In this document: piece by piece, positions 868 through 43,243 of the stretch
Numbering within the stretch: the first letter of the stretch is position 1
How the letters are laid out: the number at the start of each line of letters is the position of its first letter
Source: a virus
Direction: 5' to 3' (one strand)
IMG/VR virus record: IMGVR_UViG_3300045988_144944
DNA length: 43,243 nt
Translations under genes and position numbers: made by a program
The notes under the pieces: generated by a model
The model's input: the letters and a program-made list of their open reading frames with translations, nothing else
What the model was told of the DNA's origin: nothing
Databases searched by the model: none

Positions 868-873
868 TTTATT

Positions 874-1392
874 TCATTTTAAATTTTGGTATTCCTCAAT
901 AGCATTAAAACAAGGACATTCTTTCATCCATTCAAAAGGTTCTATAATGCCATTTCCGTTTAAATCTTTAGAAAAGTCCCTATGCCCCTTTATTGTTGCT
1001 TCTGGGTATCTTTTCATCAGCTCTTTTAACAGCCATGTTATCGCTTCTTTTTGCTCTTTTGTTCTTGTATCTTCTGCCTTTCCTTGTTCATTTAACCCGC
1101 CAACGTAACAAATGCCGATAGAATTACTATTGTGCCCGGAAACATGCGCCCCAATTTCAGAAATATAACGTCCTATTTCAATTTCTCCATTTTGCAAAAT
1201 AATAAAATGATAACCGCATGTATGCCCGCTCTTTTGCTGCTTTTTAAAGCCCCTATTTTTATGCCATACATCTAATATTTCAACATTACATTTCACGCCC
1301 AATTTAGTAGCACTGCAATGTATAACTATATCTGTTATCTTTCTATCGCTTTTATCTTTCTCTAAAGCTGTTAAAATGCTATTTCTATCCAT
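874..1392 (-). CDS. N-acetylmuramoyl-L-alanine amidase (endolysin, Amidase_2/PGRP-like)
   Basis: Motifs IVIHCSAT, GYHFII and GAHVSGHNSNSIGICYVGG are typical of zinc amidase_2 endolysins. The gene sits next to a multi-TM ORF. Confidence 0.85.
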   Translation of the reverse strand: MDRNSILTALEKDKSDRKITDIVIHCSATKLGVKCNVEILDVWHKNRGFKKQQKSGHTCGYHFIILQNGEIEIGRYISEIGAHVSGHNSNSIGICYVGGLNEQGKAEDTRTKEQKEAITWLLKELMKRYPEATIKGHRDFSKDLNGNGIIEPFEWMKECPCFNAIEEYQNLK

Positions 1393-1891
1393 TTTGTTTG
1401 TCTTTATCTATTTCGTTTATCTCATCCTTGTATTTCTCGATTATAGGCTTCCAATAAGAAGGCATCGCCCGAGTAAATTCCAGCCTTAATATATGAAAAA
1501 TAATTCTTAATGCTACATTTTTCGGATAAGCTTTTATCAAATTTTTGAACGAATTTGTCGCATACACGTATATAAAAACATACGTTAATGATTTTATCAC
1601 AAAATAGGCTTCTTTTTTATCTCCGCATAAAATAACTATGCTATAAAGCACATGTATAATAACAAGATAAAGACAAATTTCTAACAAAGCATTTTTGAAC
1701 TTGCTAAACTTGAAATTTATACATCTCGATATTGAAACACCGTCTGCTCTCATTCCGGCAAATAGGTTAAATGCAAAAGCTATTATAAGCGCAAATATGA
1801 AATTGCTTGTTGTTGTCATATATGCAATTATAGGACTTGTTACCGTGACGAAAATAATTCGCAATTGCTCTAAATTAAATAATCTATCCAT
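1385..1891 (-). CDS. Holin-like multi-pass membrane protein
   Basis: 168 aa with about four hydrophobic helices. It overlaps the amidase start by 8 nt. The call rests on position. Confidence 0.5.
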   Translation of the reverse strand: MDRLFNLEQLRIIFVTVTSPIIAYMTTTSNFIFALIIAFAFNLFAGMRADGVSISRCINFKFSKFKNALLEICLYLVIIHVLYSIVILCGDKKEAYFVIKSLTYVFIYVYATNSFKNLIKAYPKNVALRIIFHILRLEFTRAMPSYWKPIIEKYKDEINEIDKDKQNG

Positions 1892-1895
1892 ACAA

Positions 1896-4016: not shown

Positions 4017-4018
4017 TT

Positions 4019-4900
4019 TTAATATATATTAAAGTCGTTATTAAAGTCGTTATTAAAGTCGTTATTAAAGTCGCCGCTATTCGGCATTAAATAACCTCTG
4101 CCAATCTTTTTAACCACTGTATTTGTTTGGAACTCAACAGTGACACTTGCTAAATTACCTTGCGTTTGCCACTGTGGAGTTATTAAGAAGCTATCGCAAT
4201 TATATACTTCCCCATATTTATCAGTAATCTGAATGTGATCTGCCATTCGTATCAACCTCATCACATCGCAAAGGTATTCAGGAGCTAAAATAACAAATTT
4301 ATAAGTCTTTTCAGATATTTGTTTTTCCGGAAAAAAGAAGCCATTCCTATCTTCTCCTTCTTCTTCAAATTCGTAATCAGGCTTTCCAAGCTCTGCACAC
4401 AAATATAAAATATTCCTGAATAAGGGATTTTTGTAAACTATTTGCCCGTTATCAAAAATAACATTTTCATCATCGTACCATTCCAATTTTAAATAGCCTT
4501 CGACACTATTTACAACTGTAAATACTTCCGAATAAATAATATCATCTCCCGTATTAAAGGTTATGTAATACATGCCTTCGCTTATCTTTAAATCCATAAC
4601 AACATTACCCGGATAAACAATAACATCATAACCGAATTGTTCAAATTCCACAAGCTGCAAGCCCGTTCTTTCAACTTCCGAAGTTATGTCTTTTATGTGC
4701 TTTCCATTTTTGTCATATAGATTTATTTCAGGAACATAAGTAATACTATGCTCTCTAATTATTTGAAAGGGGGGCAAAAAATTATTCAAACAATATAACG
4801 GATAAACTTCTCCGTACGAATAACTTCTCCTGCTGTATTGCATGTCCCTTTTTTCATAGAAGGGGAGAACACTTAAATTGTTGTTTTTATTCTGTATCAT
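4019..4900 (-). CDS. Tail/baseplate-associated hypothetical protein with a C-terminal (DFNN)x4 repeat
   Basis: 293-aa ORF between two large tail genes. It overlaps the upstream ORF, and its C-terminus reads GDFNNDFNNDFNNDFNIY. Confidence 0.5.
   Translation of the reverse strand: MIQNKNNNLSVLPFYEKRDMQYSRRSYSYGEVYPLYCLNNFLPPFQIIREHSITYVPEINLYDKNGKHIKDITSEVERTGLQLVEFEQFGYDVIVYPGNVVMDLKISEGMYYITFNTGDDIIYSEVFTVVNSVEGYLKLEWYDDENVIFDNGQIVYKNPLFRNILYLCAELGKPDYEFEEEGEDRNGFFFPEKQISEKTYKFVILAPEYLCDVMRLIRMADHIQITDKYGEVYNCDSFLITPQWQTQGNLASVTVEFQTNTVVKKIGRGYLMPNSGDFNNDFNNDFNNDFNIY
4028..4075 (-). repeat. 12-bp tandem repeat x4 (attaaagtcgtt on plus) encoding DFNN units
   Basis: Three perfect copies plus one variant copy are read directly at the 3' end of CDS 4019-4900. 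Confidence 0.9.
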
Positions 4901-7688
4901 ATTTTAACGTTGCTTCTACTGTTAACGAATTAATTCTTAGCTTAATACTTTCTACTTGACCGTTGCCCAAACCCGTTTTAACTAATTGCATAGGGTTAAT
5001 TTTGGTAGGTGCAGGATAAATTACTGTTTGCTTCTTTTTTCTTTCTATTCCATAAACATACGATTTTTCTTTGTTTATTAGAACATCCGTTGCGGGTAAA
5101 TTATATGTCCAATAAAGCGGATGAAGGCTTGCAAAAGACATATAACCATTTTGTAACGTGTAATCTCCGCCGTCAATGCGCATTTCTACAAATGGCAATT
5201 GCCATGTATCTATAACGTTTAAATTGGTTATTTTGAATTTTTGTACACCTGAACAATAAAAGCCAAAAGTAGCCGCATCTCCCGGTATCTGAACGCTTAA
5301 ATTTAATTGATTTCCACCTCCGGCAATGTCTATTCTTGATTGATAACCCAGATCAGCACCAGAAGAATTAAAAAAGTGCACCCTTAAAAATCCAGATGCT
5401 TCGGCAACACAATTACCAATTATCAACGCTTTGTGTCCTCTGTATAGAGAATTAATTTCGTATGTTGGCGTTGAATAACCGCCGCTTTCATATTGATTTT
5501 GCGAGCCGTAACCGAACGAGTCTGGGTTTGTCATTGCGTTCGGCGATATAGCCGCCATTATAACAAATCCGTCGTCGCTAAAAGCACTGGGATTTAAAAG
5601 CATCATATCTATATCCGAAGAAAAATTCGACACATTTACTTCTTCTATTTTACCGGCGGTTACATATTTCGACAAAATTTCAATTGGATAGCCTTCAAAT
5701 ATTTGCGAAACTTCGTCCATCCAAGAAAATTGAAATCTCTCTGCCATGTCTATTTTGTCGAATTTCCAACTATTTGTGCCGAACACATACTTTTTACCAT
5801 TCCGAACATTTTCTATTTCCGTTAAATCAACGTTTATTATCGGAAAGTAAGAATAAGAGCCACCATTTCTAAACCACTGTATATGCTCTATTTTAAACTT
5901 GTTATCTTCTATATACCAATAACATTGAAAACAATTCTTTAGCATGTTTGTAAACGACTGCAAAGTAATTGTTCCTCGCTGTGCGGGCGTTTGATATTCC
6001 CCAGCCAAAATGTTTGTTTTTTGAGTAACAAATAGATCAAAAATTAAGTTTGAAATCGGGTTTTTTTCGCTATATAAGAACTTGCTATATTCTTCAGTAC
6101 CTTCATGTTTTATTTCTGGAGCTATTTCTTTTAAAAGAACTGAAATGCAAGACCATAAAGGGTAAGCATCTTTCAACGTATAAGGAGACCTACCATTCGC
6201 CTCTATATATTTGTCTGAAAAAGCAAAATCAAACCAAATAGACACATAACGCCAATTTGATTGTGAAATAGGATAGAATTTTTGCCCGTATAAGGTATAA
6301 GGCGGTAAAAAATATCTCCCATTATCTGACTTCCCCCATTCTGTCGGCTCATCCGAAAACCTTGCAGAAATTTCGGCAATGTCTATCGCATAACCTAAAC
6401 AATAATGATAATTTCTATTATTCCCAACTATATCATCGCCGCTTAAGGGATAGGTTGCAATGCCTAAAATACTACTTACATCTAACAAATACCTCACATA
6501 AATGTTATATGTTTTCAATGAACAATGCGCTACACCTGTTGCAAATCCCGAAAAAGGCGACATATCAAAGTTTATATTATCTACACTTTCTCCGGGCGAA
6601 AGGCTCTTAACATAACCGAAAATAGGCACTTTATCAGATGTTCTTTGAATAGTAGCTGTAATTGAAAAATTGGCTGAATAGTTTATATAACATTCATAAC
6701 CGTTACTGTTTTCTGGGTATAAATAACCTGTATAACTACCACCAGAAAGAACATTCATTTTACCACTGTATACGCCTGAACAATCTGAAGGAGTACCTTC
6801 AACAGTTATGTTTATTTCGTTCAAAACATTACATAGCGCAAAATGGAATGTGTTAACAAGCGCATTTTTATCCCCATTCGGCGAAACATCTTGCTCCCAA
6901 TTTCCCCCCCCCAAGAAGCAAGAAATAATACTCTCTCCGGGCAAATAAACCTGAATTAAAGGTCTTTTATATACAGTTATTCTTTCTATCGCCGGAGCAA
7001 GTTCTATCAAGTTGTATTCTTTTTCCATTCCTGCCAGAACATCGTTATATTGGTCGTAAACATCCGGCTGCACGGTTATCATTTCATCATCGGCATTAAA
7101 TTCGCAATCTGTTTTCATGAACTTACCGATAAAAGCATTCTCCCAAGTCAACCTATTATCTTCTGACTTGAAAATATAGAAATAGAAAATAGTATCGAAA
7201 GTCTTATCATCGATAAAATGATAATCTTGTTTTAACAATGAAATTTTTCCAGATAATTTTTGCCTATAAAAATTCTGACTTGTTTCTAACTCATAGGTAA
7301 TACTAAAATCATCGTTATATACCGGAAATACTTGTTTTATAGCATATATTTCTAACCCATTCTCCTGCAGATAATAATCTCTAATCACTGAAATTCTCGC
7401 ATATACAGCCCCTTTGGGAGTCATTACGTAACCGCTTGCTCCGTGTCCGTCAGCAATTCCATCAATATAATTGTAATTTTCATCATAAAAAGCCCCAGCA
7501 AATATAGAATTAATCATTAAACACATACTTCCGGAAACATCCATGTAATCAGTAGAATTAAAGCCAACATGCACCTGTAATTCTCCTGTACTTTCATTTA
7601 CAGAATAATCTACTTTATTCCCAGAAGCATTGTAATCAAAAAGATTTTTACTTTTTGTGTTTATACCAAATTTATAATAAGGGTTCAT
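4887..7688 (-). CDS. Large distal tail protein (Tal/host-recognition candidate)
   Basis: 933-aa ORF immediately after the tape measure, with a 4-nt ATGA overlap. The call rests on position and size only. Confidence 0.5.
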   Translation of the reverse strand: MNPYYKFGINTKSKNLFDYNASGNKVDYSVNESTGELQVHVGFNSTDYMDVSGSMCLMINSIFAGAFYDENYNYIDGIADGHGASGYVMTPKGAVYARISVIRDYYLQENGLEIYAIKQVFPVYNDDFSITYELETSQNFYRQKLSGKISLLKQDYHFIDDKTFDTIFYFYIFKSEDNRLTWENAFIGKFMKTDCEFNADDEMITVQPDVYDQYNDVLAGMEKEYNLIELAPAIERITVYKRPLIQVYLPGESIISCFLGGGNWEQDVSPNGDKNALVNTFHFALCNVLNEINITVEGTPSDCSGVYSGKMNVLSGGSYTGYLYPENSNGYECYINYSANFSITATIQRTSDKVPIFGYVKSLSPGESVDNINFDMSPFSGFATGVAHCSLKTYNIYVRYLLDVSSILGIATYPLSGDDIVGNNRNYHYCLGYAIDIAEISARFSDEPTEWGKSDNGRYFLPPYTLYGQKFYPISQSNWRYVSIWFDFAFSDKYIEANGRSPYTLKDAYPLWSCISVLLKEIAPEIKHEGTEEYSKFLYSEKNPISNLIFDLFVTQKTNILAGEYQTPAQRGTITLQSFTNMLKNCFQCYWYIEDNKFKIEHIQWFRNGGSYSYFPIINVDLTEIENVRNGKKYVFGTNSWKFDKIDMAERFQFSWMDEVSQIFEGYPIEILSKYVTAGKIEEVNVSNFSSDIDMMLLNPSAFSDDGFVIMAAISPNAMTNPDSFGYGSQNQYESGGYSTPTYEINSLYRGHKALIIGNCVAEASGFLRVHFFNSSGADLGYQSRIDIAGGGNQLNLSVQIPGDAATFGFYCSGVQKFKITNLNVIDTWQLPFVEMRIDGGDYTLQNGYMSFASLHPLYWTYNLPATDVLINKEKSYVYGIERKKKQTVIYPAPTKINPMQLVKTGLGNGQVESIKLRINSLTVEATLKYDTE

Positions 7689-19116: not shown

Positions 19117-19659
19117 TTATTTTTTCTCTTTTGCTTTCTCTTTTGCTTCTGTATCAGGCAAAATTCCGGCTGCTTTCTCTTTTGCTTCTGTATCAGGCAA
19201 AATTCCGGCTGCTTTCTCTTTTGCTTCTGTATCAGGCAAAATTCCGGCTGCTTTCTCTTTTGCTTCTGTATCAGGCAAAATTCCGGCTGCTTTCAATTCC
19301 GCTAAAATTTCAGCCTTTAAAGCTTCTTTTTCTGCTGCCTTTTGTTCGGCTATTCTTTTTTCTTTTGCTTCCTTGATTTTAGCTTCATTGTTTTTTAACC
19401 ACTCTGTTGGGTCGTGGAGAATATCCACTGTATAACCTTGCTTTTTCAAGTTATGCAACAAAAAGTTGTCAAATGATTTCTTACCGAAAACCTGTAATCT
19501 TGGTTTACTCATCCTTTCCCCTGTTTCGGCATTAAATTTTTTTACTTCTATCCGGCAATGATACAAATGTTCTTCTCCTTCCGGAACAACGAAATTTTCA
19601 GGCGTAATATCCAAAATTTTCGTCACATTTTTAGTTTTTGTTTTCTCTCGCATAGTCAA
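19117..19659 (-). CDS. Hypothetical protein with a C-terminal 4x13-aa repeat (AAGILPDTEAKEK)
   Basis: 180-aa ORF overlapping the end of the portal gene. It has a globular N-terminal half, a K/E/A-rich helix, and then four identical 13-aa units. Confidence 0.55.
   Translation of the reverse strand: MTMREKTKTKNVTKILDITPENFVVPEGEEHLYHCRIEVKKFNAETGERMSKPRLQVFGKKSFDNFLLHNLKKQGYTVDILHDPTEWLKNNEAKIKEAKEKRIAEQKAAEKEALKAEILAELKAAGILPDTEAKEKAAGILPDTEAKEKAAGILPDTEAKEKAAGILPDTEAKEKAKEKK
19134..19289 (-). repeat. 39-bp tandem repeat x4, perfect
   Basis: The unit ctttctcttttgcttctgtatcaggcaaaattccggctg is read four times head to tail on the plus strand. Confidence 0.9.
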
Positions 19660-23001: not shown

Positions 23002-23027
23002 ATCTTTATTTTTTATTGTTATTGTTT

Positions 23028-23222
23028 TATTTTGATATGACAAATATACAGCTTATTTTTATTCTACCAAAAGAATAGCTTATTATTTAGTATCAATTAA
23101 CAAAAAGTTTTGCTTGGGGGGGGCAAAAGTTATTATTTTGATCGAATTTTCGATTTAAGGAACTTTCTTCAGACTGCTTGGCATCTTATCCAAAAGAAAA
23201 AGAAAGTGCCGGAAATAGGCTA
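23028..23222 (-). repeat. Intergenic cassette copy B (read-through-type upstream end, gatac patch allele)
   Basis: It aligns base for base with 36046-36240 except for the 5-nt patch and two SNPs. It contains the TAG stop codon of terL at 23220-23222. Confidence 0.9.
23041..23071 (-). promoter_or_regulatory. Bacteroidetes-type promoter (TTTG-N19-TATATTTG) driving the structural/lysis unit
   Basis: Plus caaa at 23068-23071 is the -33 TTTG. Plus caaatata at 23041-23048 is the -7 TATATTTG. The spacer is 19 nt. Confidence 0.75.
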
Positions 23223-24791
23223 ATTTATTCTCTTTATACCTCTACGCTCTCTCCCGTATGGATATATATTATTATCTGCTATTTCTTTTTCATATATGCC
23301 TGTTAGCCCGTCTTCCGGGTCATCGTGCTTATTAGCTTTAAAATCCCTTAGAAACGTTGTTACATGCTCGTAAAAGGTCTTAAATCTCGTTTCCCAACCG
23401 AAAGGCATAATTATATATTGGTTAACCATTGCCGAGCTTGTTATTATCCTGCTCTCTTTATTTCCCTTTTGATAAAAAGGACAAGTCAATGATTTTATTT
23501 TCCTTTTGATAACCTTTTCAAAGCCACTCCCGCCGTTATTACTTTCAACCCATGTTTTTTGCACTCCATTCCTGTTGATTAAGTTAGGTATAGTTACTGT
23601 TGTTATCTCTGTACTTTCATCTGTCATTTCTATATCTGTTATCAAAGCAAATAACAAAGGCTCAAATTTTTTCTTCCTCTCATTGTACACAGAATTCTCC
23701 GACATATATATGTCATAAGTAGCGGCAAATAATAAATCATTCCCTTCATCCGCAACATCAATATAACAACCTGTACGAATGTATTTGCCAAAATCATTTT
23801 TATCTATCCACGTTTTAAAAGGTTGATATAACCTTCCTTCTGTTGAGCCGGGATTACCTTGAAACAGACACTGAAATTGTATAGGGTCTAACAATCGATG
23901 ACTTTCCAATTTCTTTTTACTGTGCCTTTCTTCCCACAATGCCTCACCTTCTTCTCTTGGGTCTATTTCCGTTTTTTCCCCAGATTTAAGACCTTCAAAA
24001 TTTATTCTAACCCATGCCCCCTCCGGAATATCATTTATATCGCCCCAACTTTTTATATCAATTATCTTTTCGCCGCTTTTTTCTATACGCCCAATAAGAT
24101 CATCTTCGTTCCAACGAGTAAAAACTATAAGCTCTTGGCTATTATTATGCAACCTTGCCCGAACAACCGATGTGTACCACTTCCACGCTGCATCTCTAAT
24201 AATTGGGCTATTACCTTCGGAATAATCTTTATAAACATCATCTAATATCGAAATATCAACTGTTTTCGAAGTCAATGCACCACCTCTACCAACAACACGT
24301 AAAGAACCTTTATGTCCTACTATTTCGATAACATCGCTATTTCTCAAATAATTATTTGCAAGTGTAACGACATTTGAGCCATTCAAATAAGTTTCTGGAA
24401 AAACTTTTCTATATCTGTCAGTATCGATTATCCTCTGAACATCTCGGTTAAAATCTCTCGCTATTGTTGCGGCATAGGAACATATACAAATTTTCAAGTC
24501 AGGGTTTATTCCCAATAAAAAGGCAGGCAATTTTCTACTTGAACCTTCCGATTTTCCATGCTGCGGAGGCTGCTGTACGATCATCTTTTTTATTTTGCCA
24601 TGTGCAAACAAGTCTAATAGTTTATAATATACCTCGTGAAAAGGTTTAACTTCCATTTCTGGAGACATATAACGAGAAAACGATAAAAGTCGCTTTCTCG
24701 CCGCACTTAATATCAACTTTTCAGGATCATTTTTAACCCTATCATAAATATTTATATATTCCTTTTTATGTCCCATTTTTAAGATTTTCAA
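23220..24791 (-). CDS. terL: Terminase large subunit
   Basis: 523 aa with a Walker A-like QQPPQHGKSE and a Walker B-like VDISILDDVY, followed by a C-terminal nuclease-sized domain. It lies downstream of a TerS-like ORF. Confidence 0.8.
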   Translation of the reverse strand: MKILKMGHKKEYINIYDRVKNDPEKLILSAARKRLLSFSRYMSPEMEVKPFHEVYYKLLDLFAHGKIKKMIVQQPPQHGKSEGSSRKLPAFLLGINPDLKICICSYAATIARDFNRDVQRIIDTDRYRKVFPETYLNGSNVVTLANNYLRNSDVIEIVGHKGSLRVVGRGGALTSKTVDISILDDVYKDYSEGNSPIIRDAAWKWYTSVVRARLHNNSQELIVFTRWNEDDLIGRIEKSGEKIIDIKSWGDINDIPEGAWVRINFEGLKSGEKTEIDPREEGEALWEERHSKKKLESHRLLDPIQFQCLFQGNPGSTEGRLYQPFKTWIDKNDFGKYIRTGCYIDVADEGNDLLFAATYDIYMSENSVYNERKKKFEPLLFALITDIEMTDESTEITTVTIPNLINRNGVQKTWVESNNGGSGFEKVIKRKIKSLTCPFYQKGNKESRIITSSAMVNQYIIMPFGWETRFKTFYEHVTTFLRDFKANKHDDPEDGLTGIYEKEIADNNIYPYGRERRGIKRIN

Positions 24792-25575: not shown

Positions 25576-26790
25576 TCATCCTATTTTTACGGCTTTACGC
25601 CCGGTTAATGTTTCCCAACGGTTAATAATCACGTCGCAATAATGCTCTGTTAATTCCATCATGTAGCATTTACGGTTTAATTGTTCGCACGCAATTAGTG
25701 TTGAACCACTACCACCAAATAAATCTAAACAGCTTTCGCTTCCCGGGTTATGGGTTAATGCTGTTGCTATTAATTCTATAGGTTTCATAGTTGGGTGTAA
25801 ATCGCTCTTTTTCGGTCTTTTTATATCCCATACATTTGTAATTGTTCTATTATCGGTAAAATCAATTCCGCTTTCTACCCATCCGAACCATATTGGCTCA
25901 TATTTATTTTGGTATTTACCTCTTCCCAATGTAAATTGGTCTTTGTTCCATATAATTGTTGTTGAATTGTGTAGTAATTTGTCTGCTTCAACAAACATCA
26001 AACGCCCATCTTCTCCTTGCCCTGCACACATATATACACATCCCTTGCAAAATATTTTTATATTGTTTATAAATTTGTTACAGAACTCAATAAAAGATGA
26101 TTTGTCCATATTATCATTTTCTATTTCTCTGACTTTAAATTTTTTGTGCTTTATATTTCCGTAATTTATATTATATGGAGGGTCTGTAAATACCATATCT
26201 GCTTTACATCCATTCATAAGATTTAAAACATCATCTTTGTTTGTACTATCCCCACACATGAGTCGGTGTTCTCCCAACTTCCATATTTCGCCCCGCTTTA
26301 CTCTTGGTTTAAGTTTTTCCGGTTCATTGTAATTATCTTCTTCCGCTTTCTTTCCCGGTGCCTCATTAAACCATCCTTTCGGGGTTTCGATATTCCACGC
26401 CCTTATTTCATCTTTACTCCAATCCTTTGCAAGTTTTTCCCAATCTGTTTGTCCGGTGCTTTCATTATCCAACAACGCCATACGTCGTAATTTCTCAACC
26501 GGGGTATCTTCCGGCAAAGCAATAATTGGCACCTCCTTACGTTTCAAAGCCCTTTGTGCTTCTAAACGTCTATTACCACCTATAACGACGTAACGACCTT
26601 TATAGGGAAAACACAACGCCGCACGTGCAATTGTCATTTCCGGCAAATCCTCAATACTCTTTTCCAAATTACGCTGCTTTGCATCCTCTCTCGTTCTCGG
26701 ATTTTCCGGAACGCCGGGTATTTGTCCCTCGTTGTACTCTAATAATTCTATCGGTACAAACTGAATCTGAATTTCATTGTTATTTTTCAT
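25576..26790 (-). CDS. ParB-like nuclease domain fused to an N6A/N4C DNA methyltransferase
   Basis: The N-terminus (VVIGGNRRLEA) is ParB/Srx-like. It is followed by motif IV VFTDPPYNINYG and a C-terminal motif I DLFGGSGSTLIACEQL. The start is placed at the ATG at 26790 (MKNNNEIQ...), preceded by GAAAGGA. Confidence 0.85.
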   Translation of the reverse strand: MKNNNEIQIQFVPIELLEYNEGQIPGVPENPRTREDAKQRNLEKSIEDLPEMTIARAALCFPYKGRYVVIGGNRRLEAQRALKRKEVPIIALPEDTPVEKLRRMALLDNESTGQTDWEKLAKDWSKDEIRAWNIETPKGWFNEAPGKKAEEDNYNEPEKLKPRVKRGEIWKLGEHRLMCGDSTNKDDVLNLMNGCKADMVFTDPPYNINYGNIKHKKFKVREIENDNMDKSSFIEFCNKFINNIKIFCKGCVYMCAGQGEDGRLMFVEADKLLHNSTTIIWNKDQFTLGRGKYQNKYEPIWFGWVESGIDFTDNRTITNVWDIKRPKKSDLHPTMKPIELIATALTHNPGSESCLDLFGGSGSTLIACEQLNRKCYMMELTEHYCDVIINRWETLTGRKAVKIG

Positions 26791-26812
26791 AAATTTCCTT
26801 TCTACGTGGTTT

Positions 26813-28021
26813 TTATTCCTCGGCGGTCTGTCTTTCCTGCCATTGATTGCACGCAATACAACTGCAATGACTCATTCTGTTTTGCTCGTTGCAAAATCCG
26901 TCGCCATCCCTATCTTCATTTACAAAGTTACTGCAATTCCCACAAACCGTGATTTCCGGTTCCTTGTGCGGGTGTTTACGCATGAACTCCGGGTTTTTCT
27001 CCCTGCCTGCAATTTTATTGTATGCCATTTCCAACAATTCCTTTTGGCTATAACCGAACAATGCTGCGATATGGAACAAAACGGCGTTCATGTCTGCCAA
27101 TTCGTCTATTATTTCCGTCATATCGTCCGGCATTATCCCGTTTACCAACATATCATCAGCAACAACAAACAATTCGTGGTATTCCTCGGTTAATTTGGAA
27201 AATCTGCTTTGTATGTTCTTTCCGAAAAGATTATTCATTTTTGCAAACAATCTTTTTTCGCTAAAACTTAATACGGGGTTGTTTTCTTCCTTTTCTTCAA
27301 ATTCTTCTACAAATGTTTTGTAGTCCATTTTCCCAAATCGTCCATCCGGGAACCTTACAACCGCCCATCTTTCCGGAACGCTCATAATAACGCCATTTTC
27401 TGTTATGAAAGAATATAAACCAATTCCGCCGGGCTTTCTTGGTATCTCCATTGTTCCGCCTCCGGTAAAATCAATCAGTCTTTCGATATTATCCCGTGAA
27501 ACGGGAACGGCTCTAACCTCTAACAATCTGCGGCAATACAAATATCCGGCTTTCTCGTTCGGTTCTCTCTTATCCGCACGTACTTCGTTTGGCAAATTTT
27601 CCGCACCTCTTTCGTACTCAACAAAGAATGTCGCCCCACGCAAAAATATTTGTTCCCAGATATGTTCAACGGCTCGCACTCTCATTCCATAACGACCAAT
27701 AACCGCATCAATTGCGGCTTTTACAATATATTCGTCTTTGTCGTCAACATACATTTTCATTTCAAACAATTCTGCCTTTTCTGTTATTTCCGGTTCATGC
27801 CCGGTAACGCTCTTTATCATCAGAATTGTTTCCGCATCAAACGGGGTTAATTTACTTTCTTTCATCGCTCTTTTGTTTTTTATATAATAACCATTATTTG
27901 CCGGAATTACGCAATCATCACAAATTCCGATCGAACCAAACTCCGAAAGTTTATCTAATATCTCACCTCTACTAATTTCTATTATCTTAAAGCCTTTTTC
28001 ATTTTCAAATATCTTTGCCAT
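26813..28021 (-). CDS. Multidomain protein: unknown N-terminal region, MazG-like NTP pyrophosphohydrolase domain and a Cys-rich C-terminus
   Basis: LTEEYHEL ... IIDELADMNAVLFHIAALFG ... AYNKIAGRE matches the all-alpha MazG EExxE / ExxD pattern. The C-terminus reads CGNC...FCNE...CSCIACNQW. An AAGGAG lies 7 nt upstream of the ATG. Confidence 0.55.
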   Translation of the reverse strand: MAKIFENEKGFKIIEISRGEILDKLSEFGSIGICDDCVIPANNGYYIKNKRAMKESKLTPFDAETILMIKSVTGHEPEITEKAELFEMKMYVDDKDEYIVKAAIDAVIGRYGMRVRAVEHIWEQIFLRGATFFVEYERGAENLPNEVRADKREPNEKAGYLYCRRLLEVRAVPVSRDNIERLIDFTGGGTMEIPRKPGGIGLYSFITENGVIMSVPERWAVVRFPDGRFGKMDYKTFVEEFEEKEENNPVLSFSEKRLFAKMNNLFGKNIQSRFSKLTEEYHELFVVADDMLVNGIMPDDMTEIIDELADMNAVLFHIAALFGYSQKELLEMAYNKIAGREKNPEFMRKHPHKEPEITVCGNCSNFVNEDRDGDGFCNEQNRMSHCSCIACNQWQERQTAEE

Positions 28022-28233
28022 ACTTTTTCTCCTTTTAATTTACTTTTTTTATCTATTATGATCTATTCTTCTAAAATGGGTAATCCCTTCTTGCCTCTTT
28101 AAACCTAAATCCCACCCACCCAAACTGGTTATTGAAGCCGGGTTGAAAGCCATATATGGCTTATCAAATGCCCTATTCTCACGAACCGGGCATTGGACAT
28201 TAACTAAAACTTGAACCTATGGCTAATTTGTAT

Positions 28234-28596
28234 TTAATCTCTTACCTGTTCCATCAATTTTGTATAAGGGTTATATGTTTTCTGTATAAAGAACTGATAT
28301 ATCCCGGCAGGCAATAAGATAGGTTTATGATCCTTTATCGGTAAAAGTTCAGGTGATGAATATGTCTGTTCATTCATCAATGAAATGTCCGTATGCTGTA
28401 ATCTCGAATCTTCATTAAGCTTGTAGATTACTCTATCATCCGATTCATATCTTTCTACATTTCCCGTAACTACATGACAATGGCCGCTGCTACCTACTGC
28501 AATAGGCTTGTTGTCCACTTTCTTAAATCCTACCGGGATTAATTCTATTTGCCGGAATTGTACGTCTCCGGCATGACCTTTTAATAACTCTTTCAT
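28234..28596 (-). CDS. Hypothetical small beta-rich protein (GDV...GH.H motif family)
   Basis: 120 aa. Its start lies 1 nt after the stop of the repeat protein. The motifs AGDVQF, SSGHCH and LPAGIY resemble a family I recall from other phages; this was not checked. Confidence 0.5.
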   Translation of the reverse strand: MKELLKGHAGDVQFRQIELIPVGFKKVDNKPIAVGSSGHCHVVTGNVERYESDDRVIYKLNEDSRLQHTDISLMNEQTYSSPELLPIKDHKPILLPAGIYQFFIQKTYNPYTKLMEQVRD

Positions 28597-28597
28597 G

Positions 28598-29896
28598 TCA
28601 ACTTCTGAAATTAAATGAATATTCTTCTTTGGTAAATGGGGATAATGAAGCGATCGCTTCTATTGCATCATTATATTGAGGATCTACTCCAACAAGATAA
28701 TTAGTCCCGGTTGATGGGCAAGTCATCTTCACCCATGCCATAGGATCATCGCCAAGCTCGGGAAAAGTCTCTTTTGTTTTCAAAAGTTCTACTGTCTCTA
28801 TATCCCCGTTAGCATGATGTATTGTATTTGTATCTGTTATTTCCGCTCCTAACAGGTTTATTATACCTTCTGCCCCTAAAACCTCATATATCGCCCCTTT
28901 TATATCCAAGTTTTTCTCCTGTAAAAATTGATCCTTTATTATTGAATCTTTATTTTCTACTACCCATTTGGGTATTGGCCTGCCGTTAATAAAATAATAC
29001 GAACTTCCATCCCTGAATTTTACTGCCGCTGTAGAGGTGGAATGTAAACGCCCTTGCGAATTTAGTTCAACATATATCGGAGGCTGAATGGCAAAGACAC
29101 AATTATCAAATTCATACGCATTAAATACCCCTGATTTTAGTATCTTTTTATATTGTTTAAAATTAAAATTATCAAGGATGTTTATTTTCTCAAAGAAATC
29201 ATAAAATGATATCCTTCCATAATTAGATAAACCTATATATGAAGAATAACTGTGAAATATGTTGACAGAATCCCAGACAGAAGCCCCGACAGAAGCCCAG
29301 ACAGAATCCCCGACAGAATCCCCGACAGAATCCCAGACAGAAGCCCAGACAGAATCCCCGACAGAATCCCCGACAGAAGCCCTGACAGAATCCCTGACAG
29401 AATCCCAGACAGAATCCCAGACAGAAGCCCTGACAGAATCCCAGACAGAAGCCTCGACAGAAGCCCAGACAGAATCCCAGACAGAATCCCCGACAGAAGC
29501 CCTGACAGAATCCCAGACAGAATCCCAGACAGAATCCCCGACAGAAGCCCTGACAGAATCCCTGACAGAAGCCTCGACAGAATCCCAGACAGAAGCCCCG
29601 ACAGAAGCCTCGACAGAAGACCGAATAGAAGAACCTAATTCATCTTTAATCAACTTATTTAATTTTTTATCTTTGAGAATAGCAATAGTAATTAGACAGC
29701 TTATCCAACTGTCGCAATACACTACCTTCGGTTTTGGCTTGTGAAGAAGATCTGTATATAACCATTCAATCCCCTCTTCAAACATCGTTTTGTCTATCCC
29801 CTTTTGATTCTTTACGTTATCAAAAAACAGGTTGATCCATTCATCTCGCGTCTGGAGCATTAATTTTTTTTGCTCTTCGGTTAGTTTTTCCAACAT
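28598..29896 (-). CDS. Tetrapeptide-repeat protein: 30 units of (W/G/R/E)(D/A)SV between globular N- and C-terminal domains
   Basis: 432 aa. The central 120 residues are a strict 4-aa periodic array. The C-terminal part (GRLHSTSTAAVKFRDGSSYYFINGRPIPKWVV) resembles a widespread domain of unknown function that I recall as DUF6745-like; this was not checked. Confidence 0.7.
   Translation of the reverse strand: MLEKLTEEQKKLMLQTRDEWINLFFDNVKNQKGIDKTMFEEGIEWLYTDLLHKPKPKVVYCDSWISCLITIAILKDKKLNKLIKDELGSSIRSSVEASVGASVWDSVEASVRDSVRASVGDSVWDSVWDSVRASVGDSVWDSVWASVEASVWDSVRASVWDSVWDSVRDSVRASVGDSVGDSVWASVWDSVGDSVGDSVWASVGASVWDSVNIFHSYSSYIGLSNYGRISFYDFFEKINILDNFNFKQYKKILKSGVFNAYEFDNCVFAIQPPIYVELNSQGRLHSTSTAAVKFRDGSSYYFINGRPIPKWVVENKDSIIKDQFLQEKNLDIKGAIYEVLGAEGIINLLGAEITDTNTIHHANGDIETVELLKTKETFPELGDDPMAWVKMTCPSTGTNYLVGVDPQYNDAIEAIASLSPFTKEEYSFNFRS
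29264..29623 (-). repeat. 12-bp tandem repeat x30 (plus-strand unit GACAGAA[T/G]CCNN)
   Basis: The array is read directly. Seven to eight of the 12 positions are invariant, and variation is limited to three or four positions of the unit. Confidence 0.95.
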
Positions 29897-29897
29897 A

Positions 29898-30059
29898 TCA
29901 TTTCGCTTTAAATATCGGTTTAAGAATCTTATTCACATACCACACACAATAAATCAATCCCAAGAAATTTAAATACCAGCAATCTTCGTCATCATTGATA
30001 ACCAATAGACAGGGGAAAGTGAGGATTGAAAAGGCTATCAGATTTAATAATCGTCTCAT
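29898..30059 (-). CDS. Small membrane protein (53 aa, below the ORF-track cutoff)
   Basis: Translation MRRLLNLIAFSILTFPCLLVINDDEDCWYLNFLGLIYCVWYVNKILKPIFKAK. It has an ATGA start/stop overlap with 30056-30268, and its stop lies 1 nt before the next ATG. Confidence 0.45.
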   Translation of the reverse strand: MRRLLNLIAFSILTFPCLLVINDDEDCWYLNFLGLIYCVWYVNKILKPIFKAK

Positions 30060-30268
30060 CTTTCAAAGATTTTTTCGAGAATATCTTTATCCGTTGTGTT
30101 TTCAATTGTCGTGTATTCTAAATGCAAGTCTTTGCATTCAAGAAGTTCTTTATAGGCCTTTCTCGTTTCTTCGAGATTCACGCTCATTTGAGGGTCTTCG
30201 AATGTAACCCTTTTTCTGTTTCCGGTATTAGTTACATAACTTATCCCGGTAATTTTGTAGATTGTCAT
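30056..30268 (-). CDS. Hypothetical protein
   Basis: 70-aa ORF in a co-directional, tightly packed array. Confidence 0.5.
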   Translation of the reverse strand: MTIYKITGISYVTNTGNRKRVTFEDPQMSVNLEETRKAYKELLECKDLHLEYTTIENTTDKDILEKIFER

Positions 30269-30287
30269 ATTTTATGAATTTAAATTA

Positions 30288-30554
30288 TCAGCAATATCTT
30301 GACAGACCTTGTGTGTGACAAATCAAATTATAGGTCTCTAACATCCCGTTTTCTTCGATCTCTCTTTCTTGTTGCAGAGTGTATTCAAATTCTGCATCAT
30401 TTATTGCCTCCCGAATAAGTTCTAAAGCTTCCGATAGTTCACTAATAACAAGAACTAAATAGTGTTCATCACTGTAATTTTCATCGTGAAATCCTTTATC
30501 CTTAGCTATTTTGTACGCTTTATCTCGTAACAAATTAAAATCTACATTTCCCAT
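30288..30554 (-). CDS. Hypothetical protein; its N-terminal half resembles the first helix pair of MazG-like NTP-PPases
   Basis: KAYKIAKDKGFHDE...LVLVISELSEALELIREA is MazG-like. The second metal-binding helix pair is absent, so the protein may be truncated or degenerate. Confidence 0.35.
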   Translation of the reverse strand: MGNVDFNLLRDKAYKIAKDKGFHDENYSDEHYLVLVISELSEALELIREAINDAEFEYTLQQEREIEENGMLETYNLICHTQGLSRYC

Positions 30555-31714: not shown

Positions 31715-31761
31715 TTTCTTTCTCCCAATTTTATTTATTAAGTATAATTTTACCTGTATGA

Positions 31762-31792
31762 CAAATATACAGCTTATTTTTATTCTACCAAA
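31762..31792 (-). promoter_or_regulatory. Bacteroidetes-type promoter (TTTG-N19-TATATTTG) driving the accessory/terminase unit
   Basis: Plus caaatata at 31762-31769 and caaa at 31789-31792, with a 19-nt spacer. Confidence 0.75.
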
Positions 31793-31940
31793 AGAATAGC
31801 TTATTATTTAGTATCAATTAACAAAAAGTTTTGCTTGGGGGGGGCAAAAGTTATTATTTTGATCGAATTTTCGATTTAAGGAACTTTCTTCAGACTGCTT
31901 GGCATCTTATCCAGATAAAAAAGAAAGTGTCTTAAAAGGC

Positions 31941-31970
31941 AAAAAAATAAGCCCGGATAACTCCGAGCTT
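31941..31970 (-). terminator. Rho-independent terminator ending the early units, 2 nt after the ssb stop
   Basis: Same hairpin as at 156-186 (AAGCTCGGAGTTATCCGGGCTT), followed by ATTTTTTT on the minus strand. Confidence 0.75.
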
Positions 31971-36024: not shown

Positions 36025-36045
36025 TTTCTTAAAATTTTAGTTGTT

Positions 36046-36240
36046 TATTTTGATATGACAAATATACAGCTTATTTTTATTTTACCAAAAGAATAGCTTA
36101 TTATTTAATGCTAATTAACAAAAAGTTTTGCTTGGGGGGGGCAAAAGTTATTATTTTGATCGAATTTTCGATTTAAGGAACTTTCTTCAGACTGCTTGGT
36201 ATCTTATCCAAAAGAAAAAGAAAGTGCCGGAAATAGGCTA
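36046..36240 (-). repeat. Intergenic cassette copy D (read-through-type upstream end, agcat patch allele)
   Basis: It aligns with copy B over 195 bp. It contains the TAG stop of the methyltransferase gene at 36238-36240. Its two private SNPs are c>t in the promoter spacer and c>t in gcttggYatc. Confidence 0.9.
36059..36089 (-). promoter_or_regulatory. Bacteroidetes-type promoter (TTTG-N19-TATATTTG)
   Basis: Plus caaatata at 36059-36066 and caaa at 36086-36089, with a 19-nt spacer. Confidence 0.75.
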
Positions 36241-37197
36241 AAAATCTAATTTCAAATTAATCTTCTCATTATTTATTCGCCCATTTGCGATATCGAAATA
36301 TTTTTTGTCAATTTCATAACCTATAAATTTTCTTCCTTCTAAAATAGCGCATTTACACTCTGTGCCACTACCGGCAAATGGAACAACAATTAAATCATCT
36401 TTATTTGTCAATGTCGTTATCAACGCTCTTGTAAGCATTTCAGGCTTTACAGTCTCATGATCTATATTTCTACTCTTAACATGTTCGTTTTTAAAATGAA
36501 GAATTTCATTTAAGGAAAGATGATTATTGAATACACGTGTTTTTATGCTCTTTTTTAAGCTTTCATAATCTGACAACACTTTTGAGTAATCTTCATCTAT
36601 ACACAAAATAGATTGTAAAATTTTCCATTGCTTCGAATTTGGAATATTATACCCTTTCTCCCAATTCGTCACCTGTCCGCCATGATTAACATTTTTATAA
36701 AATTTACCTTGTTCCGCAACTTCATTTATCGACAATTTTCTAATTTCTCTTTGTCTTTTAATGATTATTGAAAATGGATTTTTTTCAGAAAAGTTTTTCA
36801 ACAAATGTTCTAAAGTGCTCATTTTTGAATACATTAAAATTCGCTCTGTACAAGGAGCGAATTTCCTTAACAAAGGACTATTTTTCAAATTCATAAAGTC
36901 CCCTTTATCCCAGACTAAATTATTCAACAAATGAAATTTTTTATCTAAAATAATTTGTGTATAAGCTATTTTATTTGAGCTTCCATACCAAAGAAGCGTA
37001 CCACTGTCACTCAAAATTCGGAAACATTCATTTGCCCATTTTTCGACATCTACAAGATAAGATTCAAAGCTATTCCATACAAAGTCAAATTTCCCTTTTG
37101 TTTTAAAATATGGCGGGTCAGCAATTATCAAATCTGCAACACTTTCTTTTAAATCATTATCTAAAAAATCGGAATTATACAACTTGTTATATATCAT
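36238..37197 (-). CDS. DNA methyltransferase (N6A/N4C, beta-class motif order)
   Basis: Motif IV LIIADPPYF lies near the N-terminus and motif I VVPFAGSGTECKCAILEGRKFIGYEID near the C-terminus. No adjacent restriction endonuclease was seen. Confidence 0.8.
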   Translation of the reverse strand: MIYNKLYNSDFLDNDLKESVADLIIADPPYFKTKGKFDFVWNSFESYLVDVEKWANECFRILSDSGTLLWYGSSNKIAYTQIILDKKFHLLNNLVWDKGDFMNLKNSPLLRKFAPCTERILMYSKMSTLEHLLKNFSEKNPFSIIIKRQREIRKLSINEVAEQGKFYKNVNHGGQVTNWEKGYNIPNSKQWKILQSILCIDEDYSKVLSDYESLKKSIKTRVFNNHLSLNEILHFKNEHVKSRNIDHETVKPEMLTRALITTLTNKDDLIVVPFAGSGTECKCAILEGRKFIGYEIDKKYFDIANGRINNEKINLKLDF

Positions 37198-37939: not shown

Positions 37940-38823
37940 AATTGTATCTCCTCTTTACACATTAATTCAAAAACACGCTTTATTTCTTTTCTTCTCGCTA
38001 TTTTATAAACAAGGTTATCTAATTCTTTACATTCCTTGCCAACATTCCGAACATAGGCTGCTGTAAATTTATTAACCAACCCGGACGAAGCTCTACTTAA
38101 AAATTCGCAAAAAGCCTCTTTTCTATCTTCTTCTTTATCAAGATTTATACCTTCGGAGAGACCTCTCCGACATAACCATTCATAAACAAACATTTCATCG
38201 AAAAAATCAAGCTCAAAAACACCTTTGTATTTAAATTTAAGGAACACATGACGGCATCTATTTTTTATATTTTCGCTTTCTTTTACGTTACTTATAAGCT
38301 TATTTTCAGACTTATTTAACTTGTTATAAACATGTGATATTACACTGTTTTTTTTCGCTAAATAAGCGTTTAAAACACGTGAAAAATAATCAATGTTGAA
38401 ATTCTGGTAATGGCTTTTATCTGCATTTCCTGCCTTGTCTTTCGGTAAATAGTTATTTAATTCCCCTATCAACAAAAATTCAAAAGCAATTTTTATTTCG
38501 CTTAATGATAGTGTAGAAAAATATTTTTTTAACATGTCTAACAACCTCGTACAAGTGTACGACCAAATACTCACATCATCTGGTATATTATACCCAACAT
38601 CGAAAGCTATATAGCGAAAAAGGCTTCTTGTTTTTTCAATGAGAACATTATCTGGAATTTCTGCAATTGGCGTTTTAACAGATGCATTTAGTATTTGTTT
38701 CTCTATGCTTGAACAAACGTTATATTTTGCATCATAGTTAACAATTTTTCTTCTTACATCGATAGCCTTAATATTTCCGCTATTATTCCTGAATAAAGTT
38801 ATATCACTCATTTTCAAAATCAT
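37936..38823 (-). CDS. Hypothetical protein; possible replisome-loading partner of the initiator, by position only
   Basis: 295-aa ORF overlapping the end of the initiator-like gene. No Walker motif was seen. Confidence 0.3.
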   Translation of the reverse strand: MILKMSDITLFRNNSGNIKAIDVRRKIVNYDAKYNVCSSIEKQILNASVKTPIAEIPDNVLIEKTRSLFRYIAFDVGYNIPDDVSIWSYTCTRLLDMLKKYFSTLSLSEIKIAFEFLLIGELNNYLPKDKAGNADKSHYQNFNIDYFSRVLNAYLAKKNSVISHVYNKLNKSENKLISNVKESENIKNRCRHVFLKFKYKGVFELDFFDEMFVYEWLCRRGLSEGINLDKEEDRKEAFCEFLSRASSGLVNKFTAAYVRNVGKECKELDNLVYKIARRKEIKRVFELMCKEEIQL

Positions 38824-39721
38824 TTAAAAAATCCATTGCGCCAACGACATTTATTTTTTTACCTTCATGTTTAAAATCTTGCTTTAAATGCAACTTTCCT
38901 CTTTCAGAATCTCCCCTAATGAAATTTCTAATTGTTGCAACCCAACCCCTCTTTGTCCTCTTTACGCCTTGCTTCGTGTCTGACCAATCGCACACAGCGT
39001 TAAAGTAGTAGATTAAATCTATTTTTTTGAACTCCTCACCATTGAACATTTTTTCAAAATCTGAAAAATCCGGCTTGCCATTTTCATTTTTAACGCTTTT
39101 GTAAACTTCCGAATTTCGAAAAATGGTTGTTCTTTCTTTTATTTCTTTTTCGTGCGTTATGGTGCAAATTTCATTTGCGCCATTATTATTTATAGTATCT
39201 ATATTTATAGTATCTATATTATATGGAGTTACGTTTTGTAACCCGCTCTGGGTTACGTTTTGTAACCCGCTCTGGGTTACGTTTTGTAACCCGCTCTGGG
39301 TTACGTTTTGTAACCCGCTCTGGGTTACGTTTTGTAACCCGCTCTGGGTTACGTTTTGTAACCCGCTCTGGGTTACGTTTTGTAACCCGCTCTGGGTTAC
39401 GTTTTGTAACCCGCTCTGGGTTACATTTTGTTCGTCTAAAGAGTCATAATTGAACCTATAAAAGCATTTCTTTACAGCCGCATTAACATGCTTCTCGTAT
39501 TTTTCAATTATTCCCGCTTCGACTAATTTTTTCAACTTGCAGATAACATTCTTTCTATCTATCCCCACCCAATCGGCAATATAATCGATAGAGCCATTAA
39601 ACCAGGCATTTCCTTCTTGTGTGTGTCCGAGAATAAGAGCTGTTATTAACAGCTCACTATTTTTCAATTTAAGCTTATTTCTTAAATATCCCGGAACAAT
39701 CAAATAACTTTCATCTCTCAT
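38804..39721 (-). CDS. Replication initiator-like protein (N-terminal winged HTH, internal 8x GLQNVTQS repeat)
   Basis: The N-terminus (LITALILGHTQ...GSIDYIADWVGIDRKNVICKLKKLVEAGII) looks like a wHTH. The gene body contains the iteron array, an arrangement analogous to lambda O and its ori. Confidence 0.55.
   Translation of the reverse strand: MRDESYLIVPGYLRNKLKLKNSELLITALILGHTQEGNAWFNGSIDYIADWVGIDRKNVICKLKKLVEAGIIEKYEKHVNAAVKKCFYRFNYDSLDEQNVTQSGLQNVTQSGLQNVTQSGLQNVTQSGLQNVTQSGLQNVTQSGLQNVTQSGLQNVTQSGLQNVTPYNIDTINIDTINNNGANEICTITHEKEIKERTTIFRNSEVYKSVKNENGKPDFSDFEKMFNGEEFKKIDLIYYFNAVCDWSDTKQGVKRTKRGWVATIRNFIRGDSERGKLHLKQDFKHEGKKINVVGAMDFLNDFENE
39191..39220. repeat. AT-rich 15-bp direct repeat x2 (tatagtatctatatt), a possible DNA unwinding element
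   Basis: Two perfect copies lie 7 nt from the iteron array. Confidence 0.6.
39228..39443. repeat. Iteron array: 8 perfect 24-bp repeats plus one degenerate copy (putative origin of replication)
   Basis: The unit gttacgttttgtaacccgctctgg is read eight times head to tail at 39228-39419. Each unit contains the dyad GTTAC-N5-GTAAC. A ninth copy at 39420-39443 is diverged. Confidence 0.6.
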
Positions 39722-43074: not shown

Positions 43075-43243
43075 ACAAATATACAGCTTATTTTTATTCT
43101 ACCAAAAGAATAGCTTATTATTTAATGCTAATTAACAAAAAGTTTTGCTTGGGGGGGGCAAAAGTTATTATTTTGATCGAATTTTCGATTTAAGGAACTT
43201 TCTTCAGACTGCTTGGCATCTTATCCAGATAAAAAAGAAAGTG
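43075..43243 (-). repeat. Intergenic cassette copy E (same genomic copy as A across the circular or terminal junction)
   Basis: 43100-43243 is identical to 1-144. The core is identical to the other copies, and it carries the agcat patch allele. Confidence 0.9.
43076..43106 (-). promoter_or_regulatory. Bacteroidetes-type promoter (TTTG-N19-TATATTTG) driving the early unit
   Basis: Plus caaatata at 43076-43083 and caaa at 43103-43106, with a 19-nt spacer. Confidence 0.75.

Follow-up and report, generated by a model that had tools for sequence, protein, structure and literature searches.

Phage proteins with tetrapeptide repeats are already known, as is DUF6745 (Pfam PF20530) as a catalogued protein family. 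Here we describe a gene in which the two come together, located in the viral IMG/VR record IMGVR_UViG_3300045988_144944, a stretch of 43,243 nucleotides that was analysed over its whole length and is referred to as the window. The gene encodes a protein of 432 amino acids (aa) with a central tetrapeptide array. In the closest described system, gp54 of mycobacteriophage Tweety, the array is encoded by DNA with invariant third codon positions and a high GC content, and proteins of the gp54 type have been reported to contain 48, 26 or 15 units in phages whose flanking sequences are more than 95% identical (PMC2884959). Mutants of gp54 that escape defence are described in a review as gaining or losing repeats to overcome Phrann gp29/gp30 (PMC9262239). 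An in-frame tandem repeat of which the copy number varies between isolates has also been reported for VR2 of bbp36, a non-essential gene of the Bordetella phages BPP-1/BMP-1 (PMC2884959).

The window protein resembles Tweety gp54 (with Che8 gp57 and PMC gp51) in several respects: (i) the centre of the protein consists of units of 12 bases or four residues with two fixed and two variable residues and invariant silent positions; (ii) the GC content of the array is far above that of the genome; (iii) W and G dominate one variable position; (iv) the number of units differs greatly among phages with near-identical flanks, with the counts on the window side coming from short-read assemblies; and (v) both are non-structural early or accessory genes. 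On the other hand, the fixed pair of gp54 is AA, its C-terminal tail comprises only ~40 aa and it does not match DUF6745, while the flanks of the window protein appear to form one body with a projecting arm instead of two domains spaced by an array. A function has been demonstrated for gp54 only. Homology between the two proteins was considered and rejected (BLASTP best E 0.095; hhalign probability 0.4%). The bbp36 repeat is likewise an in-frame tandem repeat of variable copy number in a phage gene, but its 24-base unit (a 19-base repeat plus a 5-base spacer) lies in an unrelated protein.

The tetrapeptide array

The array is inserted at a single, fixed position between two conserved parts of the protein (aa 1-87 and aa 212-432) and can expand, and we hold this architecture and the mode of evolution set out below with high confidence. 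Tandem Repeats Finder detected the repeat at 29264-29618 (period 12, 29.6 copies, score 486), and the minus-frame reading of ORF (open reading frame) 28598-29896 resolved it into 30 in-phase units at 29264-29623, corresponding to aa 92-211. Both confirm the (W/G/R/E)(D/A)SV array proposed by a first-pass annotation that had been made from the sequence alone. The Ser-Val codons TCT GTC are constant in 30/30 units, as are bases 3 and 6-12 of the 12-mer and every third codon position. The remaining variation consists of T12/G11/A6/C1 at base 1, G27/A3 at base 2 and A17/C13 at base 5, giving eight 12-mer types, and is limited to these three bases except in unit 1 (CGG TCT TCT GTC, RSSV). The repeat had been called strict, which holds for the constant bases and fails for this first unit. 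In the 29 units that follow it, W occurs 12 times, G eight, R six and E three times, and E is always followed by A, just as originally counted. The GC content of the array is 55.8%, compared to 33.8% in the rest of the gene. Two plus-strand ORFs (29252-29638 and 29259-29744) cross the array and are by-products of the repeat; the flanks conserved in homologues are seen in the minus frame only. A diversity-generating retroelement was ruled out as the origin of the variation: no reverse transcriptase is present in the scanned window ORFs, and the mutation pattern (T/G/A/C at base 1 and A/C at base 5, in a tandem array) is unlike the adenine-templated pattern of such elements.

Across the family the position of the array site between the N- and C-terminal flanks is fixed and its content is variable. 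Among 149 representatives, 71 have a short linker (<40 aa), 25-32 a clean period-4 array and ~49 a long linker without residue repeats. The clean arrays, found in relatives from Bacteroidota to Mycobacterium hosts, follow the grammar [D/A/N/G][S/Q/N][V/L/I][W/G/R], with SV, QV, NV, NL, NI or QL as the fixed pair. The mycobacterial example is gp38 of prophage prophiGD102-1 (60% GC Mycobacterium), which shares the three-part architecture and the homologous C-terminal domain and contains 46 units of (G/D)QL(W/R/G) at the same site, followed by a DUF6745 domain scoring 101 bits.

At the DNA level, base 1 (NGG, encoding W/G/R), rarely base 2, and base 5 (D vs A/G) vary in six independent arrays. 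Their silent sites are lineage-specific (Ser is TCT in the window and TCG in the related locus L003) and constant within each array. Because silent sites differ between lineages yet not within an array, the arrays are undergoing concerted evolution by duplication and loss of units, in which a small set of unit types is kept. The two variable positions combine near-independently (observed/expected ~1 for either D or A combined with W, G or R; 0.59 for E-D), and between adjacent units W-W (0.76) and G-G (0.73) are avoided and W-G (1.31) is favoured, all of these values being drawn from related, non-independent sequences. The tests for a super-period over several units, such as a solenoid coil might give, and for a helical-hairpin signature (W opposite G at mirrored units; z 0.18) found neither. 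The view of the first-pass annotation that the array is not random low complexity is supported by these data.

A survey of repeat number among homologues revealed wide variation. Seven homologues with flanks 100% identical to those of the window protein (87 + 221 aa) have 5, 14, 17, 18, 19, 21 and 28 units compared to 31 in the window, counting the degenerate GSSI unit. Three of these alleles (P0002, P0005 and P0031) can be derived exactly from the window array by internal deletion; others differ in unit types and order, e.g. by WSSV units in P0003 and P0008. Contig L005 represents the same phage (99.83-99.87% identity over 9.9 + 10.3 kb) and has 18 units; it also differs from the window at two other tandem repeats (see below).

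Could such length differences be artefacts of short-read assembly, with one true length, and with the DNA repeat mattering, if at all, at the level of the nucleic acid through a GGG every 12 bases? The exact internal deletions would suit this reading, as would the GGG that six arrays have at bases 2-4 in each of their units and the fact that 6-7 of the 18 IMG/VR contigs carrying the gene (L012, L021-L026) begin within the array. However, assembly collapse cannot create alleles with different unit content such as those with WSSV. Finished genomes of isolated mycobacteriophages show the same length variation (PMC2884959), and a pattern that is conserved in the protein although the codons differ speaks against a role at the DNA level. 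For these reasons we consider a purely artefactual origin highly improbable. The data demonstrate, or at least strongly suggest, that array evolution proceeds in steps of whole 12-base units, gained or lost via slippage or unequal recombination, and therefore the reading frame is kept and silent sites are homogenised.

Protein family and predicted structure

The link to DUF6745, which the first-pass annotation had suggested, proved to be real. The window protein matches PF20530 with 23.4 bits (E 4.1e-5; aa 261-353, profile positions 43-135 of 206), short of the gathering cut-off of 27 bits, and matches phrog_31813 of unknown function in PHROGs (E 1.5e-10); an NCBIfam scan gave no match. A search of 5.8 billion proteins returned 3290 homologues at E<=1e-3, the best with 79-91% identity, and PF20530 is present in most of the close homologues as well as in distant relatives. 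With the C-terminal 221 residues, phmmer retrieved 2743 representative clusters at E<=1e-3, many of them above the DUF6745 cut-off, and BLASTP aligned the window protein with gp38 of prophiGD102-1, which is itself above that cut-off, at E 1e-20. The window protein is thus homologous to established DUF6745 proteins along the entire domain, and is a divergent member of the family. Relatives among cultured phages are restricted to the Microcystis phage Ma-LMM01 group, of which the DUF6745 protein has a C-terminal domain homologous to that of the window protein, one metagenomic Caudoviricetes record and the Mycobacterium abscessus prophage prophiGD102-1. No paper in the searchable literature mentions DUF6745.

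Structure was predicted with AlphaFold2 (AF2) for allele P0031, which has five units and flanks 100% identical to those of the window protein, using the diverse alignment of 149 sequences. The model reached a pLDDT (predicted local distance difference test) of 92.1 and a pTM (predicted template modelling score) of 0.84, with pLDDT values of 91-98 for the N-terminal 76 and the C-terminal ~215 residues and of 55-66 for the short array. Full-length prediction with 54 close homologues gave a pLDDT of 49.6, and the array (30-56) was drawn as low-confidence helices. The flanks are thus predicted to be ordinary folded parts, as the first-pass annotation had expected, and since pTM is 0.84 for the whole chain and array-less homologues exist, both probably form one globular body. 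Invariant columns in the N-terminal part comprise T16 R17 D18 E19 W20 ... Y60 C61 D62, and near-invariant residues in the C-terminal part are H285 and C393-P-S-T396 (window numbering, i.e. P0031 numbering + 104). Foldseek retrieved nothing for the P0031 model from the PDB (best E 0.1) and only DUF6745 proteins from the BFVD viral models, including that of Microcystis phage LMM01 (E 1.9e-18). Sequence and profile searches of the PDB with the family, the partner gene product described below and two arrays likewise gave nothing relevant, their sole match being the tetrapeptide (EEVG-type) repeats of Plasmodium P230.

Further evidence on the array comes from 38 long linkers. Their residue identity at lag 4 (0.069) is at background compared to lags 3 and 5 (0.056-0.060), whereas their hydrophobicity has a period of exactly 4.0 (power 3.8 vs 1.01 +/- 0.15 in shuffles, z 18.8). 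A period of 3.6 reaches only z 2.3, and the C-terminal domains show no such signal. Period 4 is therefore kept among homologues even in linkers without residue repeats, contrary to the absence of a conserved periodicity that the first-pass annotation had named as a refutation. The pattern is thus maintained by selection after the repeats decay, which favours a defined structure over a purely disordered spacer. Long linkers have I/V at the hydrophobic phase and N/S at the other phases. Together with the exact period, this composition is at odds with an ordinary helix or coiled coil.

The first-pass annotation had proposed a solenoid- or ladder-like scaffold with two variable surface positions, which could be a beta-solenoid related to the pentapeptide repeats, with a period of 4, and perhaps a DNA mimic. 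Pentapeptide repeat proteins (Rfr fold; Qnr, MfpA) do combine small, polar (N/D/S/Q), aliphatic and variable residues in long uninterrupted arrays, and the unit [A/D][N/S/Q][L/V/I][R/G/W] resembles the pentapeptide consensus A(D/N)LXX minus one residue, e.g. ANLR/DNLW in P0134. The beta-branched I/V at the hydrophobic position, the N/S at other phases and a period of exactly 4.0 instead of the helical 3.6 point in the same direction. The period nevertheless differs from that of pentapeptide proteins (4 vs 5), neither evidence of a beta-helix nor any connection with DNA mimicry was found, and none of the Pfam Pentapeptide families matched the window protein at E<=0.1. In addition, correlation is absent at lags of 3-5 units, where stacked coils might show it, D would be awkward at an inward-facing position, and the AF2 helices, albeit of low confidence, and the lack of a similar solved structure in the PDB searches do not bear the proposal out. 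We know of no solved structure of a solenoid with four residues per side. This scaffold is thus regarded as very unlikely, and of the structure prediction suggested in the annotation, the flanks are modelled confidently and the array is not.

The array might alternatively be a tolerated microsatellite, i.e. a slippage-prone 12-base unit in a permissive surface loop, the length and order of which are without function, so that 0 or 50 units would be equivalent. Roughly half of the family is short-linkered at the array site, the arrays are internally homogenised and hence young-looking, unit order has neither super-period nor hairpin complementarity, and AF2 confidence for the array is low, all as expected under such a scenario. 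It does not readily explain why one set of W/G/R x D/A units is found again and again with the cores SV, QV, NV, NL, NI and QL in hosts ranging from 33% to 60% GC, why the variation within arrays is all non-synonymous with none at silent sites, or why adjacent units avoid W-W and G-G. The exact period-4 hydrophobicity of diverged linkers also implies purifying selection on structure. A tolerated microsatellite is accordingly considered unlikely.

Partner gene and mobile cassette

The 120-aa ORF downstream of the array gene, which the first-pass annotation had placed in the same module, turned out to be a conserved, histidine-rich partner in which GDV, HxH, H and DH motifs are invariant. In a profile search its homologue directly adjoins the DUF6745 gene in 29/31 non-mycobacterial loci, including those with QV and NL arrays (L009/L010), loci of Bacteroidota metagenome-assembled genomes (MAGs; L007/L008) and array-less members. 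It lies downstream of the DUF6745 gene in most loci and upstream in two (L029, L030), and is absent from the gp38 locus of the mycobacterial prophage and from L032. Profile searching yielded 487 partner homologues, nearly all labelled "hypothetical protein", and comparison of the partner with Pfam, PHROG, PADLOC and the PDB gave no match. Judged by this conserved neighbourhood, the array gene and its ~120-aa partner form a two-gene unit.

The phage contig L032 (84 kb) encodes PolB, ThyA and DHFR and carries two tandem DUF6745 paralogues (3691-6365). The linkers of both paralogues are long, degenerate and of period 4; no partner is found nearby, and a TEN/YD-shell protein is encoded after them.

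In the window the unit is part of a 2.27-kb cassette that also contains a 70-aa and a 53-aa ORF and shows 97-98% nucleotide identity to at least three contigs with otherwise different backbones (L006, L011 and L012). Because end points are the same and identity is high across these different backbones, the cassette behaves as a mobile accessory element exchanged between unrelated Bacteroidota phages. Its left end (30431) falls inside the 88-aa MazG-like ORF 30288-30554. The 53-aa hydrophobic ORF had been described as a small membrane ORF coupled to the array gene. The tight spacing was correct, a single base separating its stop from the ATG of the array gene, but as a conserved component this ORF was rejected: it is absent outside the 97%-identical cassette, uncalled by gene callers in L005/L006, and without a counterpart upstream of the array gene in L003, L009 and L010. 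A single base also separates the TGA of the array gene from the ATG of the partner. The 70-aa ORF matched no family in Pfam and PHROG scans.

Proposed function

The explanation that we favour for the locus combines the architecture, the evolution, the two-gene unit and a role in conflict, and is offered tentatively, as a whole that is quite possible and falls somewhat short of probable. The array would project from the globular body as an arm, the length of which would follow the number of units. The pair would take part in conflict between phage and host or between phages, where its most likely action would be to bind a component of host or prophage defence and so neutralise it, and changes in array length or composition would quickly retune the binding interaction, as has been shown experimentally for the unrelated Tweety gp54. 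Counter-defence had been raised as speculation by the first-pass annotation, which did not cite gp54. The conflict role is suggested by the location of the pair in an accessory, mobile setting, by the great speed at which the length changes in frame and by the gp54 precedent; a conflict or counter-defence function of the array protein and its partner is, taken by itself, possible but doubtful. The precedent illustrates the capabilities of this kind of design and does not establish the activity of the window protein.

Several observations weigh against this explanation. About half of the family members have a short linker and no array, which makes the array dispensable for the core function, and where an array is present its predicted fold is of low confidence in both AF2 runs. 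Because gp54 is not homologous, the functional analogy is one of architecture, and the roles ascribed to DUF6745 and the partner follow from that analogy. Searches of Pfam, PHROG, PADLOC and the PDB gave no match suggesting an activity. The array statistics are affected by the relatedness noted above, and the repeat counts come from short-read assemblies in which assemblers break at the array, so that counts in databases are unreliable and some of the short "deletion" alleles may be assembly collapses.

The pair could instead be carried by the phage as a module for defence against, or exclusion of, other phages or mobile elements, or have a different accessory function, for example in taking over a host process, with the array as a variable recognition or spacer element. 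Two-gene accessory modules of prophages are often defences, and the pair moves as a cassette among temperate and other phage backbones. In L003 and L006 it is located in early regions adjoining lysogeny and replication modules. A defensive role is at odds with the absence of any match in PADLOC-DB 2.0 for the array protein, the 120-aa partner and the 53-aa ORF, and with the occurrence of the gene in large lytic-looking phages, e.g. L032. Moreover, the only tetrapeptide-repeat phage protein known to have been studied experimentally acts in counter-defence (PMC9262239). We regard a defence module, or another accessory role of this kind, as quite unlikely.

A more far-reaching version of this idea can be formulated. 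The period-4 unit [D/A/N][S/Q/N][V/L/I][W/G/R] would build a regular structure that has not been described, and this structure would serve as the length-adjustable arm of a widespread two-protein phage system (DUF6745 plus the His-rich partner), retuned against host or prophage immunity by changes of 12-base units in phages of hosts from Bacteroidota to Actinobacteria and Cyanobacteria. With a period of 4.0, where a canonical coiled coil has 3.5-3.67, the structure would not be such a coil, and it would also differ from the known beta-solenoids. In this full form we consider the proposal unlikely.

Genome context and other repeats

The first and last 144 bases of the window are identical (144/144; 1-144 vs 43100-43243), and therefore the window is a circularly closed assembly representing a complete phage genome of ~43.1 kb. 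Its GC content is 33.6% and all of its genes are encoded on the minus strand, among them a recognisable tape measure, portal, capsid, terminase, single-stranded DNA-binding protein (SSB) and methyltransferase. Megablast of positions 20000-43243 against cultured phages gave no match, and scans of the window revealed no Rfam families and no tRNAs. The hosts are probably Bacteroidota, because of MAG matches to Dysgonamonadaceae/Bacteroidetes and of a promoter-like TAnnTTTG motif in repeated intergenic elements. The array gene is surrounded by early or accessory genes (SSB, ASCH, MazG-like, methyltransferases), and the methyltransferase and MazG neighbours named in the first-pass annotation were found to be present (Table 1).

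Table 1. Coordinates of the array gene, its parts and neighbouring features in the window
Feature	Position	Strand	Basis
Gene of the 432-aa tetrapeptide-repeat protein, DUF6745 family	28598..29896	minus	ORF list; 3290 homologues at E<=1e-3
N-terminal part, aa 1-87, helical, conserved	29636..29896	minus	pLDDT 95-98 in P0031 model
Array: degenerate unit GSSI (aa 88-91) plus 30 units (W/G/R/E)(D/A)SV (aa 92-211)	29264..29635	minus	
C-terminal DUF6745-like domain, aa 212-432	28601..29263	minus	pLDDT 91-98; phmmer, Foldseek
Partner gene, 120 aa, histidine-rich	28234..28596	minus	Adjacency in homologous loci
Cassette, 2.27 kb	28166..30431	minus	blastn vs L006, L011 and L012, same end points
53-aa hydrophobic ORF (doubtful gene), overlaps/abuts neighbours	29898..30059	minus	ORF list
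70-aa ORF inside the common cassette	30056..30268	minus	Called in L005 and L006
MazG-like pyrophosphatase, 88-aa ORF	30288-30554		phrog_9236
MazG-like protein, 402-aa ORF, neighbour of array gene	26813-28021		phrog_715 matches its C-terminal part
N6/N4 methyltransferase, neighbour of array gene	25576-26856		

Two features of the cassette's surroundings may be mentioned. The cassette is bracketed by the two MazG-like genes listed in Table 1. A link of MazG enzymes to (p)ppGpp has been reported, and Tweety gp54 counters a (p)ppGpp-synthetase-like defence; a connection between the two is only a lead. In addition, the temperate contig L006, which carries the cassette, has a gene for a 1243-aa nSTAND3 protein (STAND NTPase) beside its lysogeny module, within 792-4523, which is likely a prophage-borne defence.

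Repeated DNA is found elsewhere in the window as well. An intergenic element of ~190 bases is present in four near-identical copies (23015-23223, 31757-31946, 36034-36244 and across the ends, 43075-43243 / 1-188), with a terminal TATATTTG motif on the minus (coding) strand that resembles the -7 box of Bacteroidota promoters. The element is probably a promoter or regulatory region repeated ahead of each operon, and the copy at 31757-31946 stands ahead of the operon containing the array gene. At 39228-39431, within a replication-initiator-like ORF (38804-39721), a tandem repeat with a 24-base unit (8.5 copies, 99% matches) probably represents origin iterons; L005 differs from the window in this region. 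A perfect 39-base tandem repeat of 4.2 copies, for which the copy number in L005 is apparently different too, is located at 19132-19294 within ORF 19117-19659 adjoining the portal gene. Finally, a perfect 12-base tandem repeat, TATTAAAGTCGT, is found in 3.9 copies at 4027-4073 in the tail region, at the junction of ORFs 1896-4016 and 4019-4900.

Significance

The association of the array with DUF6745, the family-wide grammar of the unit, the period-4 pattern of decayed linkers, the partner and the cassette appear to be undescribed. The same tetrapeptide design as that of gp54, so far a single curiosity, is found here in an unrelated and far larger family, which comprises thousands of metagenomic clusters and has hosts from Bacteroidota to Mycobacterium and Microcystis. 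Its members provide a natural allelic series of 0 to ~57 units for the study of repeat length in relation to protein interaction, and the period-4 hydrophobic pattern that survives repeat decay poses a concrete structural question. If the function is indeed related to conflict, in-frame 12-base arrays at the DUF6745 site would be an easy marker for fast-evolving counter-defence genes.

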